Source: Mustelus asterias (taxonomy: Eukaryota). Taken from it: a stretch of 64,000 nt of DNA. Below are positions 26,933-64,000 of the stretch, one piece after another. The DNA lies in NCBI RefSeq assembly GCF_964213995.1, contig NW_027590122.1, positions 1,054,001 to 1,118,000 of the forward strand, given 5' to 3'. The position numbers were made by a program, and so were the translations under genes. The notes below the pieces were generated by a model that did no database searches, was not told where the DNA came from, and was given only the letters and a program-made list of their open reading frames with translations. Every line of letters begins with the position of its first letter. Position 1 is the first letter of the stretch.

Positions 26933-27043
26933 CTCAAAATAGCCACACCCTGGCCGTCATCATGACATTGAAGACAATGCTCTTGAAAAACAAAATTCTT
27001 AGCCCCATCACCGTCAAAGACAAAAAGTTCACCCTCAGTCGAT
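26933..27043 (-). CDS. TRDC: TCR delta constant exon 3 (transmembrane/cytoplasmic)
   Basis: ggcag acceptor, then DRLRVNFLSLTVMGLRILFFKSIVFNVMMTARVWLF*, carrying the conserved TM Arg and Lys of alpha/delta chains, then G|gtaag. Confidence 0.96.
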
Positions 27044-30273: not shown

Positions 30274-30585
30274 CAATTTCAACTGTGGGCGGGATGTTTA
30301 CTGAGTAATTTCGATTATCGTGAAATGCCTTGCACGTGATGTTTGGCGATTTCTCGGATTGGCGGAAAGAGAGAAAACCCGAGCTCCTGTAATTCCCGCT
30401 CTCCAATAGGACACTGGATCTTGTCACATTGACCTCCTGGCCGGATCCCGTGTACAGGGAGAGCTGGATTGCGTTGGGCGAGAAGTCCGAGGCCAAGCAT
30501 ACTGCAGCTGTGTCGATGCCGGTGGCTCCCCGTGGCACTGGCGGGTAAAAGACGCTCAATTTAGGCTCCACCGGGCCTTTCGCCT
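30274..30585 (-). CDS. TRDC: TCR delta constant exon 1 (Ig C1 domain)
   Basis: 312-nt phase-1 exon (ttcag acceptor, gtaagt donor) encoding AKGPVEPKLSVFYPPVPRGATGIDTAAVCLASDFSPNAIQLSLYTGSGQEVNVTRSSVLLESGNYRSSGFLSFRQSEKSPNITCKAFHDNRNYSVNIPPTVEI. PKLSVFY, AAVCL and SSGFL resemble shark C-delta, and an upstream D segment fits delta rather than alpha. Confidence 0.93.
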
Positions 30586-36100: not shown

Positions 36101-37927
36101 ATATTATATATGTCCATGAAGGAAAGTGCTGGATGATGGCACTGAATGTTAATTCTTTGATAAAGATCACAAGACGAAATTAATCACAGTGATATCTGAC
36201 TCTGTAACAAACTTTTGATTGAAACTATCACTAAACATTCTTCATGCAACATTGTGGGATGGTTGCAGCGAAATGGCAATGTCATTAGATTAGCAGCACG
36301 GAGACCCAGACTAATTCCCCTGAAGAAATGGGTTCAATTCCCGCCCCAGCACTTGGAGTAATTTCAAATAAATTGATCGAAGTGTAGCATCCAGTAAAAA
36401 CTCCGGCAACTATCGACGATTGCCGTTAAAAAAGCATTGTCGTTCATTGGTTGGTATCTTATCTTTGCAGCAAAAAGCTTTGAATATGATCTCGGACAAA
36501 GGGCTAATTCAGAATTCATGCTTTTTGGGGTAATATATTCGCATGGATAGAGGGTTGGCTAATCGATAGGATACAGAGAGTTGGGATTAGAAGAGCATTT
36601 TGAGGATGACAATCTGTTACAAGTGGAGTGCCTCAGCGATTAATGCTCGGGTCACAATTATTTACAATATACATAATGACTTGGATGTGGAAAGTGAATT
36701 TACTATTGCCAAGTTTGCGAATGAAAAAGGACTTCTGCCATGGGTTGTAAATGCCCATTTCGATCAACAATGTCCTTTGGAGAAGGAAATATGTTTTGGA
36801 TCCAAGAAGCAATGTCGTGGAACCTGAAATTGCCCAGTGGGCAATTAGGATTTGATTTGATTTGATTTGATTTAATGCCCACATCAAAGAAATAAAAATA
36901 AAATTATGATTTTTTGAGTCCAATGTGACACTACTGGAGCTACAAAGACTGGACACTGCAATTTTAGGACGAGCTGAGCTGGATATTCAGCTGCGCAAAT
37001 TCATTATATCAGTGTAATGTTCTCAATTGCCTTCCCACATGATGCTGCCTCCCTGTCCATCATAGAGCTGGTAATGACATTAAATAAGCTTATCCTTACT
37101 GGTCACATGCTGAACCCAGTAAGTGAACAGACTGCTGAGTGTGGGTGTCTCACTGCAGTGATTAGTAAATGTGCAGGAACAATTTTCAAGACAGAAACTT
37201 CGCATTGCAGCAGCTGAGCCATATTTACCTCATGGAGGACAGAATAAAGACATTTAATTTGCACTTTTTCGGGAGCGCGTATACAAATTTCACACAAAGT
37301 CAAGCCAAGGATGCTCACATGTTTTTCGTGTGAGATTAAATGTCACTGATTTGCAAAGATTACAGGACGATATGGGCGAGCTGGTCAGACAGGTAGAACA
37401 GTAGCAAACGGAATTTAAACCTGAAAAGTGTGAGGTGGTGCATTTTGCGAGGGGTCACAAGGCAAGGGAATACACAATGAACTGTAGGACGCGAGAAAGT
37501 GCAGAGGACCAGAGGGACCTGGTCCTCTGGTCCTCTGCAAGTCCAAAGATTATTGATGCCATAGCATATAAGGCTGCAACCAAGTCTTGAGAAATGCGAT
37601 GGAATAGATAGGGGTTTAATGGCTGGAGCAGGCACAATGGGTCGCAGGGCCTCCTCCTGTTCTGTAAAACACAATGACGATGACTCCACTGTTCCCGAAG
37701 CAAAAGCGATGCGCCTAATGGTCTCCTCCATCGTTGTAGGAGTCTAATAATTTGCTGTTGTGAGAGGACATTTTAATTTTTCACTCCACCCCTCTCGCCC
37801 CCTGCTCTTCCCAATCAACTCAACAGCAGCTATTACAGGACAAAGATTCTTTACAGGTGTATTTGAATCGGACATTACTTTTTAAAACTATAACCAGACA
37901 CAAAATGCAGAAAATAGTTTCACTTAC

Positions 37928-37984
37928 TGGGTTCTACAGTGAGTTTGGTTCCACTGCCAAAGATAAGCATAGTTGCATAGTTTG
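37928..37984 (-). CDS. TRDJ: TCR delta J segment (C-proximal), functional
   Basis: Encodes NYATMLIFGSGTKLTVEP with a gtaagt donor. The 12-RSS CGATTTTGT-12-CACTGTG lies at 37985-38012. Confidence 0.93.
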
Positions 37985-38765: not shown

Positions 38766-38815
38766 TTGGTATAACGGTCACCTGGGTGCCGCTGCCGAAC
38801 GTTAATTTACTGTAG
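38766..38815 (-). CDS. TRDJ: TCR delta J segment
   Basis: Encodes YSKLTFGSGTQVTVIP with a gtgagt donor. The RSS has heptamer TACTGTG, a 12-nt spacer and a weak nonamer CTTAACTGT (38816-38843). Confidence 0.88.
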
Positions 38816-44615: not shown

Positions 44616-44676
44616 TTGGCACAACAGTCAACTGGGTGCCGCTGCCAAATGTGAGCTTCACGGTATCGTCATAATG
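44616..44676 (-). CDS. TRDJ: TCR delta J segment, functional
   Basis: Encodes HYDDTVKLTFGSGTQLTVVP with a gtgagt donor. The 12-RSS GGTTTATGT-12-CACTGTG lies at 44677-44704. Confidence 0.94.
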
Positions 44677-45322: not shown

Positions 45323-45944
45323 CACTGTCGTTGCAGATGCTAAACATATCTGTTACTCTCGTGGGAACAGTAATGCCAGAAGTCTTTATTGTCTTGCTTG
45401 GTGTTTTGACTATAGATTCGGATTCAAGTTGCAGGAGGAAAATGCAACTGCACCTCTCCCCGAAACCATCTCCCAACTAACTCCAATTATATTTGATTTT
45501 CTCTATTTCACAAAAGTACAACACATAGTTAGAAGTTTAACGTTCCTTCCATGCAGGATTTCATTAACTTCGCTGTATTCTCCTGTCATGTTAGTCCTCC
45601 CAAAATGTGTTATCTCACACTTTTCAGAGTTAAATTTCAATTTTCCACTGCTCTGCCCATTTGACCATTGCTCTGCCCATTTTCCCTCCGTATCATACTA
45701 TAATGTAAGGCTTTCCTCCTCTCCATTTACCACACCACCACTTTTTCTGTCGTCTGCGAATTTACTGATTATATCCCCTGGATTTCTGTCTCTCTACTTA
45801 GCTACCTAATGATATGTTGATCAATTTCACAATTTATTATTACATGAAATTAATTAATTATTTTCGCTCTTTGTTACCATTTGCCAGACACGGGTTTAGC
45901 AGAAAAGTCCATCGATGGATAAAGACAAATCAGCTGGCACTTAG

Positions 45945-46010
45945 TTGGCACAACAGTCAATTGGATTCCGCTGCCAAAAGTGAGTTTCTAACTACCGTCA
46001 TGGTAATAAG
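45945..46010 (-). pseudogene. J pseudogene
   Basis: Encodes YYHDGS*KLTFGSGIQLTVVP with an in-frame TAG. The donor is mutated to CTAAGT. Heptamer CACGGTG lies at 46011-46017. Confidence 0.85.
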
Positions 46011-48483: not shown

Positions 48484-48542
48484 TGGGCTCCACAGTGAGT
48501 TTTGTCCCTTCGCCAAAGACAAGCTTCACAATTCCACCATAG
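48484..48542 (-). CDS. TRDJ: TCR delta J segment, functional
   Basis: Encodes YGGIVKLVFGEGTKLTVEP with a gtaagt donor. The 12-RSS ATATTTTGT-12-CACTGTG lies at 48543-48570. Confidence 0.93.
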
Positions 48543-50218: not shown

Positions 50219-50281
50219 TGGGTTCCACAATCAGCCTGGTTCCATTGCCGAAGATGAGCTTTGCAGTCTCTCCATACGTTA
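50219..50281 (-). CDS. TRDJ: TCR delta J segment (D-proximal)
   Basis: Encodes TYGETAKLIFGNGTRLIVEP with a gtaagt donor. The 12-RSS GGATCTTGT-12-GGGTGTG lies at 50282-50309. Confidence 0.9.
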
Positions 50282-50405
50282 CACACCCGTTGATTCCATA
50301 ACAAGATCCATTGTGGTGCTGGGAGGGTGCTATTGAGAGAGCTTGGTGTTCTCCTGTGGGCTGTGAGGTTATTGCACGGGCGTTAAGGGAGATTCAACTA
50401 CTGTG

Positions 50406-50420
50406 GTCCCACGATATCCC
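50406..50420 (-). CDS. TRDD: TCR delta D segment (GGGATATCGTGGGAC)
   Basis: The 5' RSS is AGTTTTTGT-12-CACTGTG (50421-50448) and the 3' RSS is CACAGTA-23-GCAATAACC (50367-50405). It is open in all three frames (GISWD, GYRG, DIVG). Confidence 0.95.
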
Positions 50421-51304
50421 CACAGTGATACATGCCAGCACAAAAACTCTTCAGCAGCTGTTGCTGCTACTGTTGTCGCATGTATCATTTCAGCTGCGAC
50501 AGCAGAATGTCGCTGATTGATGCAACTATCAATTCTACTCCCATGAAGCAACGCACCCGATTAAAACCGTCCATGTGATTTCACATGAGCACTGGCTAAA
50601 CATATTTGGCACAACGCACCTGTAGGGGTTAGATAACCAGCAGGATGTTCTGCGGTTGGGGTAATTTTTCAGGAAAATTTTTAAAGGAACGGAGGTAAGG
50701 AAGCTGAGGTGGAAAAGTGGGCGGGGATGAGGGAGGGGGGGATTGGGGGAGGGGTGGGGGGGGGGGCCGGCAGGCGGGGCGGTGAGGAATTAACCTAGAG
50801 AATTCCCCAGCTCAGGAACAAGGCAATTGAAGGCATAGTTGCGGATTGAGGGGCGAAAAGAATTAGGGGCACTTTCAAAAGGCAAAAACTATAGAAACAA
50901 CAGATTGAAAAAGAACACAGGTTGGAGACGATTCCAGAGACGGTGAGAAGGGCATCCATCGAAGGATTTGATGAGAAGTAGGTGAATCGGTTTTGGTTTT
51001 ATTTATTATCTCAAGGGGTGAGGACTTCGCTCACATCCCTAATTGCCCTGAATTGAATGGATTGTTTAAAGTTTATTAATTAGTGCAACAGCTGGGCTTA
51101 CATTGACACTGCAGTGAAGTTACTGTGACAATCCCCTCGTCGCCACACCCTGGCACCTGTTCGGGTACACTGAGGGACAATTTAGCATGGTCAATGCACC
51201 TAACCAGCACATGTTTCGGACTGTAGGAGGAAACCGGAGAGTTGTTAGATCATTCCAGATGGCAAGCCTTGCTGTGCATCTGGAGTCAGACCAAGTAAGC
51301 TTGG

Positions 51305-53410: not shown

Positions 53411-55500
53411 ACAACCTGCGTTGGAAATGCGTTGGGTTGCGTGGGATGGCAAGGGATATTCTGTGAGAGAGTCGATACAGATTTCATGGGCCTCATAACT
53501 GCTTCTGCACTTTAGTGATTCTATGAATCTGGTGTGCACGACCAAATCTGAAATCGAAGCAGAAAATATTGGGAATATTTAGCAGGTCAGACAACAGTTT
53601 GGAGATAGAAAGAGAGTTCCCAGTTTTTGACTGTGACCTTGCATCAGGAGAGTTAGAAATCTAATAGGCTTTGAGCAACTGAATGGGCAAAGCGGGAAGA
53701 AAATAAAGTACAAAATCTGAGATAAGGTGGAGGGTATGAGAGATTCATTTGCAAAGAATTTCATGTTCCAACTTTTTATTGTTTACTTATAGGTTTGTGC
53801 GTGTTACTGGGTCGCGAAGCATTTATTGTCCAAGGTGGCGGTGAAGTACCAACTTGAACCATTGCAGTCCATGTGGTGTAATTACACCCACCGTGATGCG
53901 AGGGAGGGAGTCCCATGATTTTGACTCAGCCACAATGAAGGAATGGTGATACATTTCCAAGCCAGGATGGTGAGAAGCTTGGAGGGGAATGTTGAATGAG
54001 ATTCAGTAATGGTAATGTGGTTGAATTTTTAAGGGCGACTGTTCGACTCTTTCTTGTTGGAGATGGTCATTGCTTGGCACTTGTGCAGCTTAAATGTTTT
54101 GTTGTGACCTGTAAGCTCAAGCCTGGATATTGTCCAGGTCTTGTTGCATTTGGACATAGAGTGCGTCGGCATCTGAGGAGTTGCGAATGATGCTAAGCAT
54201 TGTGCAGTCATAAGCAGAGATCCCCACTTCTAACCATTTGATGGTATGAAGGAAGCAATGTTTGCAAGTTTTGTTGTATTGTTCCATCCTGGGCAAATCA
54301 AAACAGCTTTGTGAGCAGGTATTTGCGCAGTTTTTATGTTTGAAACAACCGTGCATGAAATATGCGCCATGTGAAATTAACATTAAGCATGTGGCTAAAA
54401 GGATGCGCATGGACCCACTATTGTGAGCGAACGTAAGTTCACACTGCGACAATGATTATCTCAATAGCCATCGAAATAATCTGCTGCTTTCAGTTACTTA
54501 GTATTAGTGAAGAGCACACATTGTCACATTGCGTCTGACAATCAGAAACGTTTCAATACATAATCCGCATGTTTAGCAGTAAGGAATAACCTTTCGAATT
54601 CCTCAGTTTCAGAAGAAACTTGCTTTTCTTTCGTCTATTCTGGTCCTGGTCAAGATTCACAGGGTGCATCCACATTCAATGATCAGCTATCTGGCCTGAA
54701 CTCCGCGTGAGTGTCCTTCACCAACAGCTCTGTGTAATTCTGTCAGACTGGATCAGGAAGAGTCAGTCGCGCTTCTCGGTTGTTTCATTCGTCTCGCGTG
54801 TATACCTTTGCTCAATAGTGGAAGAAAAAACGGTAGCTAATCTATTTGCTTGTCAATGCTCTCAATGCCATTGCTCTCCCAATGCTCTCTGGTGGCACAA
54901 TGAACAGAACGCACTCATCAATGCAACAGAAACATCGACTCATAGAGTCGACACACAGATGCCGGTCATTCGGTCGTTCCAACGTACTGATATTATTGCC
55001 GCGGATGACCTTTCCTCCAATGTTCTTCATCCAATCCGATCAATATATTTTTAGGTTTCCTTCTCCCTCGTATGCTTAACTAGATTCCCCTTAAATGCAT
55101 CTGTGCGATTTGCCTTAGTTACTCCCTGTGGTAGCAAGTTCCACATAAGAACCTTAGAGCAATGGAATAATTACTGTGCAAATGGGGCTTGAATCCCACA
55201 AAGGCAGATGCTGAAATTTGAATTCAATAAAAATCTGAAAGCAAAGATCTAATGATGACCATGAAACCATTGTCGATTGTCGTGAAGAATAATCTGATTC
55301 ACGAATGTCGTTTTATGGAAGGAAATCTGCCTTCCTTACTTGATCTTGCTTACATGTGACGGCATATCCACGCAACAATGCGGTTGACTCTCAAGCACCA
55401 TTTGAAATGACCTAAGAAACCATTCAATTCATGGAAAATTAAGCGTGGGCATCCCATGAATGGAAAGAAAAGCAGGGAAATGGCTGCAATTCCTCTTGTG

Positions 55501-55539
55501 GGTTTTTGTACAAGTCTGGATGTGATCTATATCAGTGTG
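55501..55539 (-). other. 23-RSS of the IgH-like V
   Basis: CACACTG, a 23-nt spacer, then a perfect ACAAAAACC. Confidence 0.93.
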
Positions 55540-55844
55540 CTGCTGTGCACAGTAATACGTCGCGCTGTCTGCTATTGTTAACGTGCTGACAGAGAGATCG
55601 AATACGTTGTTGGAAAGGTCCTTGGATGCAATGAATCGTCCACCAAGCTCCTGATTGTAATCCTTGCTATTTTCATTATTGTACCAAAGCAGCCATCCCA
55701 GTCCCGTCTCAGGACTGTGCCGGTACCAGAGCATGATGAAGCTCCCAATATCAAATCCGCTGGTTTTACAGGTTAGGGTCAGGGATTGCCCTACTACCCC
55801 CGTTTCTGCCTCTGGCTGGGTCAACACCACATCCGACTGGACGC
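55540..55844 (-). CDS. Immunoglobulin heavy-chain-like V exon within the TCR delta locus (TAILV/VH-delta type)
   Basis: Encodes VQSDVVLTQPEAETGVVGQSLTLTCKTSGFDIGSFIMLWYRHSPETGLGWLLWYNNENSKDYNQELGGRFIASKDLSNNVFDLSVSTLTIADSATYYCAQQ. VLTQPEAET, CKTSGF and RFxASKDxSNN are shark VH hallmarks. Frame, acceptor and 23-RSS are intact. Confidence 0.92.
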
Positions 55845-55963
55845 CTGCTAAAGGGAAGAAACAATAATTATGGTGAGGTGAATCCAGTTTGTGTCACTGC
55901 ACAGGGAATGATTGATGTCAAACAGAAACTGTGCAAATTTTCTGATAATATCCAACTACTCAC

Positions 55964-56015
55964 AAGATAAGATGACAAGGAACACACAGAGAAATATCGC
56001 TAGCATCATGCTCAT
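55964..56015 (-). CDS. Leader exon of the IgH-like V
   Basis: Encodes MSMMLAIFLCVFLVILS plus 1 nt (52 nt), with a gtgagt donor and a 119-bp intron. It splices in frame to CVQS. Confidence 0.9.
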
Positions 56016-56686
56016 GGAGCCTGTGTTAAATTAGACACCCCGACAGAACCTCCAGTCACTCACTGAACAACGTACTAAGCTGATCGTTAGATTCTGATCG
56101 TCAGTCACAAGGATTTGTGCAATGGGCGGGGGAAGGCCTTGACAAGACAACGACTATTGGCTGCCTGGAATGGAAGACGCTGTCATCACATGATGACACC
56201 CACCTTAATACAGAATGGGCGTCAACAAATCTTCATTGTTAATTAAGTCTGCACAGACTCACTGTTACTCACGATGAATTGAACCCTATTCCTGATGTTC
56301 CCGTTAACATTACCATTTGGAATATTGTTTCACTAGGTGACCGATTTCATGTTGCTTTAGCCTCACTGTGTTAGCTGTGCACTGACATAAGCAGGGTGTC
56401 CTCCATTGTCACCCTCCTGACATCGAAAGCAAATATATTGTGTGTAAGGTCATTGGAAGCAGTGACTCTTTCTTCAGACTCCTCACTGTTGGATATTTAG
56501 CTGGTCCTGCCTCTTCCCGGTACTCTTCTGGTTCTAATATGGCCACTGGCCACTGAAGTCGAAGCAACTGGTTTTGGAGGCTAGGGGCAGGAACTACCCT
56601 GGGAGCCCCATCTCTGCCTCTGACTGCGTCAGCGATACTTCCAACTTGACATCTGTTAAAGTTAGAGAGACATCAGTCATGGTGAA

Positions 56687-59521: not shown

Positions 59522-59841
59522 TGTGTTTAAGACGCAGAAGTATTTCCTGGAGTCCTCAGCTGTCACGGGTGCAACTGTCAGACTGATGCTTCTGTAAGTT
59601 TTGCTCAGGGAGGAGGAAAAGCGACGCCTGGAAAATGTGGCGCTGTCGCTGAAACCGTCGGTGCAGCGGACGAGAATATACTCGGGACTCCCTCCCATGG
59701 CTGGGTGGAGAGGTTCCCGGTACCAGACCAAGCAAGCCCTCTCCACCTCTGTGTAGGAGCAGGTGATTGTCGTGGTGGCTCCCTGCTGGACCATCACTTC
59801 TGCCTCTGGCTGGTGTATGACTGCGGATGCAGCCAGGCTAC
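59522..59841 (-). CDS. TRDV: TCR delta/alpha V exon with two extra cysteines
   Basis: Encodes GSLAASAVIHQPEAEVMVQQGATTTITCSYTEVERACLVWYREPLHPAMGGSPEYILVRCTDGFSDSATFSRRRFSSSLSKTYRSISLTVAPVTAEDSRKYFCVLNT. It has a cttcag acceptor, an open frame and a 23-RSS. Confidence 0.88.
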
Positions 59842-62959: not shown

Positions 62960-64000
62960 ATGACCAATTCAGAACCATATGTTACCAGCGAATGGGCCTA
63001 CCTCCTTTGTCAGGTGGTCTGCCCCCTCTGCCTGTACACTTGTGCCCGGCATAATCCGCGCTGTTCCTATTTTGCAACAGGTGTTCAACAATGCCATACA
63101 AACATAGCAGGTAATTACAATTACAATTAATACAATCAATCCATGCATCAGCTATGCACACCACGACCCAAACCATTGCCCCAGCCATCCCGGAGGGTTA
63201 TAATTGTGATATTGGTTCCCCTCATCCTGCATTGTTTTCGCCACGCGTTTAATGTGATCTGCCAAGCGAGTTATATTCTCCGAAGCATCTGGAGCATACG
63301 TACAGCATTTGGAGCCAACTATAGCACATGTTCCTCCTCGGGAGGCGAGCACATAATCGAGTGCCAATCGGTTCTGTAACGCCACAGTCCGAATAGCTAC
63401 GACCTCTGCTGATATTTCAGAGACAACCGTGCTCACCTCCTCGAACCCATCTTTAGTCTTATTTGCAATTCTCTCTAGGGTCGAGGCCATCCGTATCAGT
63501 TCCTGTGCAGCCTTTGCCGTCCCATAAAGTAGGTAGGCTATCATGAAGAACCGTTCTGTCTCACTAATGGCTCGCTTAGCCCTAAGCAGGTGTATCTCGG
63601 GGTGGTCCCGTAAGTCAGTGTAATGGTGAATATAAGGCATCACATATGCCAAATAGCACGATCCTGCCCAATTCCAGGGAATGATGTGGAGATGCCGGCG
63701 TTGGACTGGGGTAAACACAGTAAGAAGTTTAACAACACCAGGTTAAAGTCCAACAGGTTTATTTGGTACCAAATAAACCTGTTGGACTTTAACCTGGTGT
63801 TGTTAAACTTCTTACGGCAATTCCAGGGAAGCCATGGATAGGCATTGCTTCCACAGACAAAATAGGTACCATTATATGCAGTCATCCTGCTCACATAAGC
63901 GGAGGAGAGGCTAACCGGGACGGTGGCTGTGGGGCACTGGATTGTGACCTGTACCATGGCCCAAGCGTCATTCATGATACCAATCTCTTGTATATAGTAG
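62960..64000 (-). mobile_element. env: Endogenous retrovirus env (gamma-type) remnant, running off the window edge
   Basis: Contains furin site RAKR, a fusion peptide, immunosuppressive domain LQNRLALDYVLASRGG and CX6CC (CAIVGSKCC). A TAG stop precedes the hydrophobic TM, and an insertion at 63682-63817 interrupts the gene. Confidence 0.9.
63682..63817. mobile_element. Penelope-like terminal repeat insertion forming a perfect 96-bp palindrome, with a 13-bp target-site duplication
   Basis: The palindrome spans 63720-63815 (48-bp arms centred on ggtacc). CAATTCCAGGGAA is duplicated at 63669-63681 and 63818-63830. Confidence 0.85.

Follow-up and report, generated by a model that had tools for sequence, protein, structure and literature searches.

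The window, i.e., the whole stretch of 64,000 nucleotides of Mustelus asterias DNA that was analysed (C90:1054001-1118000 of the assembly), contains an antibody-VH-like V gene followed by a D, six J and the three exons of a C-delta gene, all on the same strand. The features are listed below from upstream to downstream.

59522..59818, minus strand: divergent TCR-type V with a weak 23-RSS, duplicated along with the cassette
56389..56641, minus strand: decayed VH remnant, 0.8 kb upstream of the VH-like V
55964..56015, minus strand: leader exon of the VH-like delta V (ATG at 56015, GT donor, in-frame splice, 52 nt)
55845..55963, minus strand: leader intron (119 nt, GT..AG)
55540..55844, minus strand: V exon, antibody-VH-derived, with an open frame, both Cys and the FR2 Trp
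55501..55539, minus strand: 23-RSS of the VH-like V (heptamer CACACTG with 1 mismatch, 23-nt spacer, perfect nonamer)
50421..50448, minus strand: 5' 12-RSS of D-delta, where all joints found in other copies lie
50406..50420, minus strand: D-delta, 15 nt
50367..50405, minus strand: D-delta 3' 23-RSS
50219..50281, minus strand: J-delta 1, with a weak 12-RSS (5 mismatches)
48484..48542, minus strand: J-delta 2
45941..46010, minus strand: J-delta 3, a pseudogene with an in-frame stop and a dead donor
44616..44676, minus strand: J-delta 4
38766..38815, minus strand: J-delta 5, with a poor nonamer in the window cassette
37928..37984, minus strand: J-delta 6
30274..30585, minus strand: C-delta Ig exon, which aligns by eye to the C region of the basking-shark model P0001
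27486..27548, minus strand: C-delta connecting-peptide exon, with a Cys
26934..27043, minus strand: C-delta transmembrane exon, with Arg and Lys in the helix
821..1113, minus strand: conventional TCR alpha/delta V, downstream of C-delta, opening a V field without J

The initial annotation had described a complete gene with leader, V exon and 23-RSS at 56015-55501, which was borne out by the reading of exons, splice sites, frame and RSS. The spliced leader and V frame is open through YYCAQQ and runs into the heptamer, which is non-consensus in the window copy. With at most one mismatch allowed, the 23-RSS pattern was found twice in the window (at the VH-like V and at the V at 820), compared with a mean of 0.0 in 50 shuffles. 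Another RSS-like site at 54896 on the plus strand was dropped, since no V stands in front of it. FR2 reads WYRH..GLGW and CDR2 is rich in Asn and acidic residues, as had been claimed.

The D is single in 164 kb of contig, carries a 12-RSS on its 5' side and a 23-RSS on its 3' side, and lies 5119 nt from the V RSS, with no other V-like match between the VH-like V and the D. The six J and three C exons are the counts for the same 164 kb, and all of these segments lie on the minus strand. This agrees with the claim that the V is the nearest to the only D, about 5 kb away and on the same strand, and its 23-RSS is indeed compatible with the D and J 12-RSSs under the 12/23 rule. The Arg and Lys in the transmembrane helix of the window C are what we take to be the signature of alpha/delta chains. 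Neither a WGxG-type J nor an IgH C exon was found in the window, again as annotated, and four IgH C queries matched the C-delta exon alone, weakly. The IgM VH layout (D1, D2 and a WGxG J within about 2 kb, then C-mu) is absent behind the window V, and no match to the IgM proximal promoter was visible by eye at this gene. In the 76 kb read behind the window C-delta, no J was found.

Some details of the surroundings were also recorded. The stop of J3 is present in every copy seen, and its donor, dead in the window, is intact in C115 and C119. The V at 59522-59818 is long-branched, has an extra Cys pair and is 95-100% identical among the cassettes carrying the VH-like V. Upstream of the window, the supporting V of a NAR-TCR cassette (C90:1131561-1134823) has lost its first Cys, which is intact in sister cassettes. 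In addition, an open frame of 196 aa at 63152-63742 presumably resembles a retroviral envelope transmembrane fragment.

The ancestry of the V was studied with a tree of 82 rows, made of V domains of this genome and three database proteins. The labels IgM, IgW, light-chain, NAR and supporting V are our own and come from gene layout and characteristic motifs. The window V family formed one side of a branch in 100% of the bootstrap trees, grouped with the upstream pseudo-VH (100/99) and fell inside the IgM-type VH group (86/89), apart from IgW-type VH, light-chain V, NAR V, supporting V and TCR V. NAR V and supporting V were recovered as separate clades with 100% support, and the window V was in neither. 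The phylogeny is thus in line with the annotation, which had considered the gene antibody-VH-like. In a second tree of 54 rows with more species, the V clade held (96/87), with the branch order among VH groups unresolved, and two ray V-only genes (P0020 and P0023) grouped with IgW-type V, away from the V clade. Better-kept homologues of the upstream VH remnant in other cassettes are the sister group of the V. The window V is about 53-58% identical to IgM-type VH, 38-43% to IgW-type and 32-33% to TCR-type V.

The best database match of the V was the basking-shark gene model P0001, in which the V is 66% identical and the domain order (NAR V, supporting V, another V, pseudo-VH, VH-like V, J, C-delta) is the same as in the cassettes here. 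The window V is antibody-VH-derived and forms its own clade with this orthologue, which also precedes J-C-delta. The FR2 and CDR2 features had been called unusual, and this has to be divided: WYRH is a trait of the family, shared by all eight distinct members that the tree contains and by the basking-shark V (12 IgM-type VH have W(I/V)RQ), GLGW is confined to the window's subfamily, and neither GLGW nor the Asn/acid-rich CDR2 is present in the orthologue. No record named TAILV was found in the homologue searches with the V. The PDB search returned engineered antibody VH domains for the V and generic C1 matches for the C exon, with no TCR-delta entry among the best 60 of the latter, and the ESM Atlas gave V-set clusters only.

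The search for the C-delta Ig exon across the assembly gave 19 matches with 82-100% amino-acid identity among 38 candidates, and the transmembrane exon was found in the same 19 delta copies and in two alpha-like ones among 21. All 19 copies are intact, with open C frames and AG/GT at the Ig and connecting-peptide exons, and in the 18 where the flank is long enough, a separate D and J set accompanies each C-delta. A member of the VH-like V family precedes an unjoined D in eleven, seven are joined at the D, and one (C3311) ends before the D. The window, which had been taken as the delta locus, is one of many cassettes.

Comparison of an 8.5-kb block around C in all 19 copies gave 10 classes at 99% and 16 at 99.8%, with a range of 90.6-99.9%. 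Three cassettes stand on the scaffold C71, at 7.1, 11.0 and 12.3 Mb, and are 96-98% alike. C173 and C973 do not differ at all over 11 kb (100% identity), which makes the assembly redundant in part and 19 an upper limit, while the 10 classes, even if each were a single allele, amount to five loci. Two copies are mosaics, C115 with family-A V and D and a C block 99.9% like that of C106/C123, and C3311 with family-B J and family-A C, which suggests gene conversion or unequal crossover.

A census of the D 5' RSS pattern found 15 places, corresponding to 12 unjoined D, two signal joints and one relic, and 14 of these matches lie 5.1-16.3 kb behind a V of the window V's family. The D 3' RSS pattern was found at 14 places and missed five known ones by design. 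The public contig runs X1 and X3 contained three or more distinct D with the same RSS surroundings, and D variants were also found in X5, a run of a related organism.

The TCR-alpha side was found as two diverged J-alpha/C-alpha arrays, each found once, on C546 (about 147 J) and at C71:18370000-18432000 (34 J in our scan). They represent two TCR-alpha loci, each with a J array and C exons of its own, and outside repeats no long block of one could be aligned with the other. The assembly has no C-delta in the 130 kb preceding the J-alpha array of C71 or on C546, which has a 200-N gap at 129549. On C546, two D-delta-like relics with shortened 3' spacers (113600-113700 and 120790-120870) lie directly upstream of the J-alpha array, the gap being placed just before the first J, so a canonical C-delta beside J-alpha could possibly be contained in it. 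As assembled, this layout does not correspond to a single-translocon TCR alpha/delta with one C-delta just upstream of the J-alpha array.

Seven of the cassettes are joined at the D, and the joints were read individually. C436, C119 and C96 share a supporting-V-to-D joint that is identical letter for letter and lies at 213728 in C436. Since C436 and C119 are 97.4% alike around C (2.6% difference), the joint predates their divergence and is likely germline. In C850, a C154-type supporting V (99.5%) is joined to a D-J-C of the type at C71:12.27 (99.8%), which is an inter-cassette join with the joint at 36291. Further joins, in which the V is broken, lie at C401:873 and C71:11023780 (11.02 Mb). 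At C138:217702-218463, with the joint at 217701, an IgM-type VH and D1 run straight into a trimmed D-delta with no bases added at the fusion; J-delta and C-delta come next, and the VH keeps an intact 23-RSS.

Signal joints are present as well. Behind two V copies with an exon identical to that of the window, the D 12-RSS stands head to head with a foreign RSS, forming exact signal joints. The partner at C71:14376803 is a 23-RSS, likely of TCR V origin, and at C110:113696 it is a NAR V RSS, in a copy 99.75% identical to the window around the V; no D-delta, J-delta or C-delta was found behind either of them in the stretches read. A third signal joint occurs in run X3, and its partner matches a TCR V family present on the window's contig (2 mismatches in 27). 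The D-delta 5' RSSs of the cassette family have been cut and joined by a RAG-type reaction, and the eight independent joins to them used supporting V (three), TCR V (three), NAR V (one) and IgM D (one). Over the V-to-D interval, four contig runs gave no V-D joint among the 15 of 195 joints listed, where repeats dominate.

The six recent joints of the assembly (four coding and two signal) are absent from runs X1, X3 and X4, whose pieces are mostly unbroken where these joints would branch, with one X4 break at the branch place of C850; this absence is a hint only, as run contigs drop rare variants. Since the joints are missing there and X3 has a private signal joint of its own, it seems somewhat more likely that the six are somatic than that they are fixed in the germline, and part of the assembled cassettes may have arisen from others by rearrangement in T cells. 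Of the recent joints, C138 would be the strongest candidate for a germline one, as no unjoined copy matches its C block at 99%.

Other rearranged sequences were observed in the same regions. Past the signal joint on C110 (113697-114760), a NAR D is followed by a NAR J signal that is joined to a NAR V in inverted orientation at the latter's coding end, which looks like a hybrid joint. Several fully joined IgM-type VDJ exons, some of them broken, are also present; the one at C71:10998805 lies 24 kb upstream of the joined cassette at C71:11.02 Mb.

Changes within the V family were also compared. Between the window V and its sister at C110:954865 there are six replacement and no silent changes, five of them in CDR1/2 (binomial p about 0.001 with our own CDR limits), a concentration that suggests selection on the antigen-binding surface. 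Framework dN/dS between subfamilies A and B is about 0.45-0.5. Among the 11 unjoined C-bearing cassettes, the V is open in eight, has a stop in one and is frameshifted in two, and family-B members have YHC in place of YYC. Calls of an 8-nt 'D' where family-B V end, and of a few WGxG 'J' with no RSS or donor, were dismissed as chance matches. With its open frame, RSS, CDR-focused replacement changes and basking-shark orthologue, the window V looks functional.

Taken together, the VH-derived V in front of D-J-C-delta is quite probably a dedicated TCR-delta V, and the cassette was probably multiplied in the germline into antibody-style miniclusters. RAG would first join V to D at the 23-RSS and 12-RSS, deleting 5 kb, and then D to J, and splicing to C-delta would give a delta chain with an antibody-like V, pairing with TCR gamma; the Tyr in WYRH would fit a V-V interface of the TCR type. 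The VH-like V would be one option of many per D, since the partners that each D takes include TCR V, NAR-supporting V and IgM V-D, located close by or far away. The unit (NAR cassette, odd V, pseudo-VH, VH-like V, D, J, C) would have spread by segmental duplication among IgH/TCR V fields, and one copy lineage would carry a V-D joint made in the germline, judging from the joint shared by its members.

It had been proposed that proximity to the D makes the window V an early or dominant delta V. The position itself is consistent with this proposal, since the V family is the nearest to D in all 14 cassette copies keeping the D 5' RSS and is D-proximal in the basking shark too, and the CDR-focused change between sister copies also fits. 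However, none of the eight independent joins uses this family, in a sample that is biased against proximal joins because the assembler tends to collapse short proximal deletions such as the 5-kb one, so that low use is not implied, and the heptamer of the window copy is weaker. Early or dominant use is thus considered unlikely. Another possibility, a passenger V that stems from an old VH insertion, travels with the duplications, sees little use and is in decay, would account for the three broken V copies of 11, the drift of family B from the YYC motif, the dead sister VH just upstream and a framework dN/dS between A and B that is only about 0.45-0.5. Against it, frame, leader, splice sites and RSS are kept in the window, the V is open in the basking-shark model, and replacement changes are concentrated in the CDRs, which makes a passenger role quite unlikely.

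The multiplication could also be apparent, with one or two delta loci and the many cassettes being haplotype copies, mis-assemblies or somatic T-cell alleles. Most copies are indeed on separate contigs, pairs at 99.7-100% exist, three other runs of the same organism do not show the recent joints, and a different signal joint is found in X3. This reading is, however, very improbable, because ten classes under 99% exceed two alleles and up to 9% intron divergence is not somatic; in addition, three cassettes are on one scaffold, each C-alpha was found once, and three D types occur inside one run.

A dedicated delta V in a germline-multiplied cassette remains the preferred reading. A wider proposal, held tentatively and at somewhat less than an even chance, is that TCR-delta has turned Ig-style in this genome: at least five germline V(H)-D-J-C-delta miniclusters would lie off J-alpha/C-alpha and among IgH clusters, RAG would fix pre-joined genes in germ cells, an IgM-VH/TCR-delta hybrid would be inherited, and the whole would parallel the birth of TCR-mu.

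A D-proximal antibody-like delta V is already a known kind of gene (TAILV or Ig-TCRd V, and VH-delta). The TAILV or 'Ig-TCRd V' of elasmobranch TCR-delta was reportedly described by Deiss et al. in 2019, and IgM/IgW-to-TCR-delta trans-rearrangement is said to have been described by Criscitiello in 2010. In a study of shark TCR alpha/delta, the locus is given in translocon form, with V domains intermediate between TCR and Ig, and in Table S1 catshark has a TAILV as well as an 'IgWVTCRD' model, and stingray has seven 'Ig-TCRd V' rows that continue into a delta constant (PMC12227049). The likeness lies in an IgH-like V adjoining delta D-J-C, but the catshark and stingray sheets have one delta constant where any, compared with 19 in the assembly here, 11 of them with their own VH-like V (PMC12227049). 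By its grouping with IgH V, its place in a delta locus, its 23-RSS and the lack of IgH D-J-C, the window V would count as an Ig-like TCR-delta V. Since ray P0020 and P0023 group with IgW-type V and not with the V clade, this clade may be a lineage separate from the TAILV kind.

In tetrapods, VH-delta is defined as indistinguishable from the VH of the same species, and in platypus it is the most D-proximal V (PMC3457774). The position is shared with the VH-delta of platypus, among those of platypus, zebra finch and Xenopus (PMC3457774), but as a distinct long-branched clade with at most 58% identity to IgM-type VH and WYRH in FR2, the window V is not VH-delta in the strict sense. Duck delta-2 is a single VH-D-J-C cluster with the same RSS layout as here, 23-RSS at V, 12/23 at D and 12 at J (PMC5278385). 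As far as these sources go, the avian and tetrapod cases differ in being a single cluster in duck, with tetrapod VH and an independent origin, whereas here there are many cassettes, with up to six J each, mixed among TCR V and NAR-TCR cassettes. A VH-D-J-C-delta cluster translocated from its locus has been proposed as the origin of avian delta-2 and TCR-mu (PMC3457774). The TCR-mu of marsupials and monotremes is similar in its delta-derived, multiplied clusters, VH-like V and germline-joined V, but it is described as a three-domain chain with a diverged C, while the C-delta copies here are 82-100% identical and ordinary delta constants (PMC7615758).

Shark IgH and IgL miniclusters also consist of a repeated V-D-J-C cassette, some partly joined by RAG in germ cells, where RAG-like joining is reported (PMC6795676; PMC2193156). 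Germline joining is seen in Ig clusters and miniclusters are described for Ig, shark TCR genes being stated as translocons (PMC6795676; PMC12227049). Ig-TCR chimeras are reported in nurse shark (PMC5931798), and IgM/IgW-to-TCR-delta trans-rearrangement is known as a somatic event (cited in PMC12227049 and PMC5931798). [quoted passage not shown] The literature search, with most subscription papers outside its coverage, found no paper on multiple C-delta cassettes in a shark.

What was not expected is found beyond the window, in the setting of the V, a multiplied and partly pre-joined TCR-delta minicluster system. In the shark papers, TCR is translocon and Ig alone is minicluster, and a multiplied, partly pre-joined delta cassette with an antibody-like V breaks this division. 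For the model behind avian delta-2 and TCR-mu, where a VH-D-J-C-delta cluster moves out of the alpha/delta locus, it would represent an intermediate stage that still exists. It also makes testable how allelic exclusion works in a T cell with many C-delta genes, and whether RAG is still reshaping TCR loci in the germline. Should the recent joints prove somatic, long-read assemblies of the region would carry T-cell rearrangements, which is a warning for their use.
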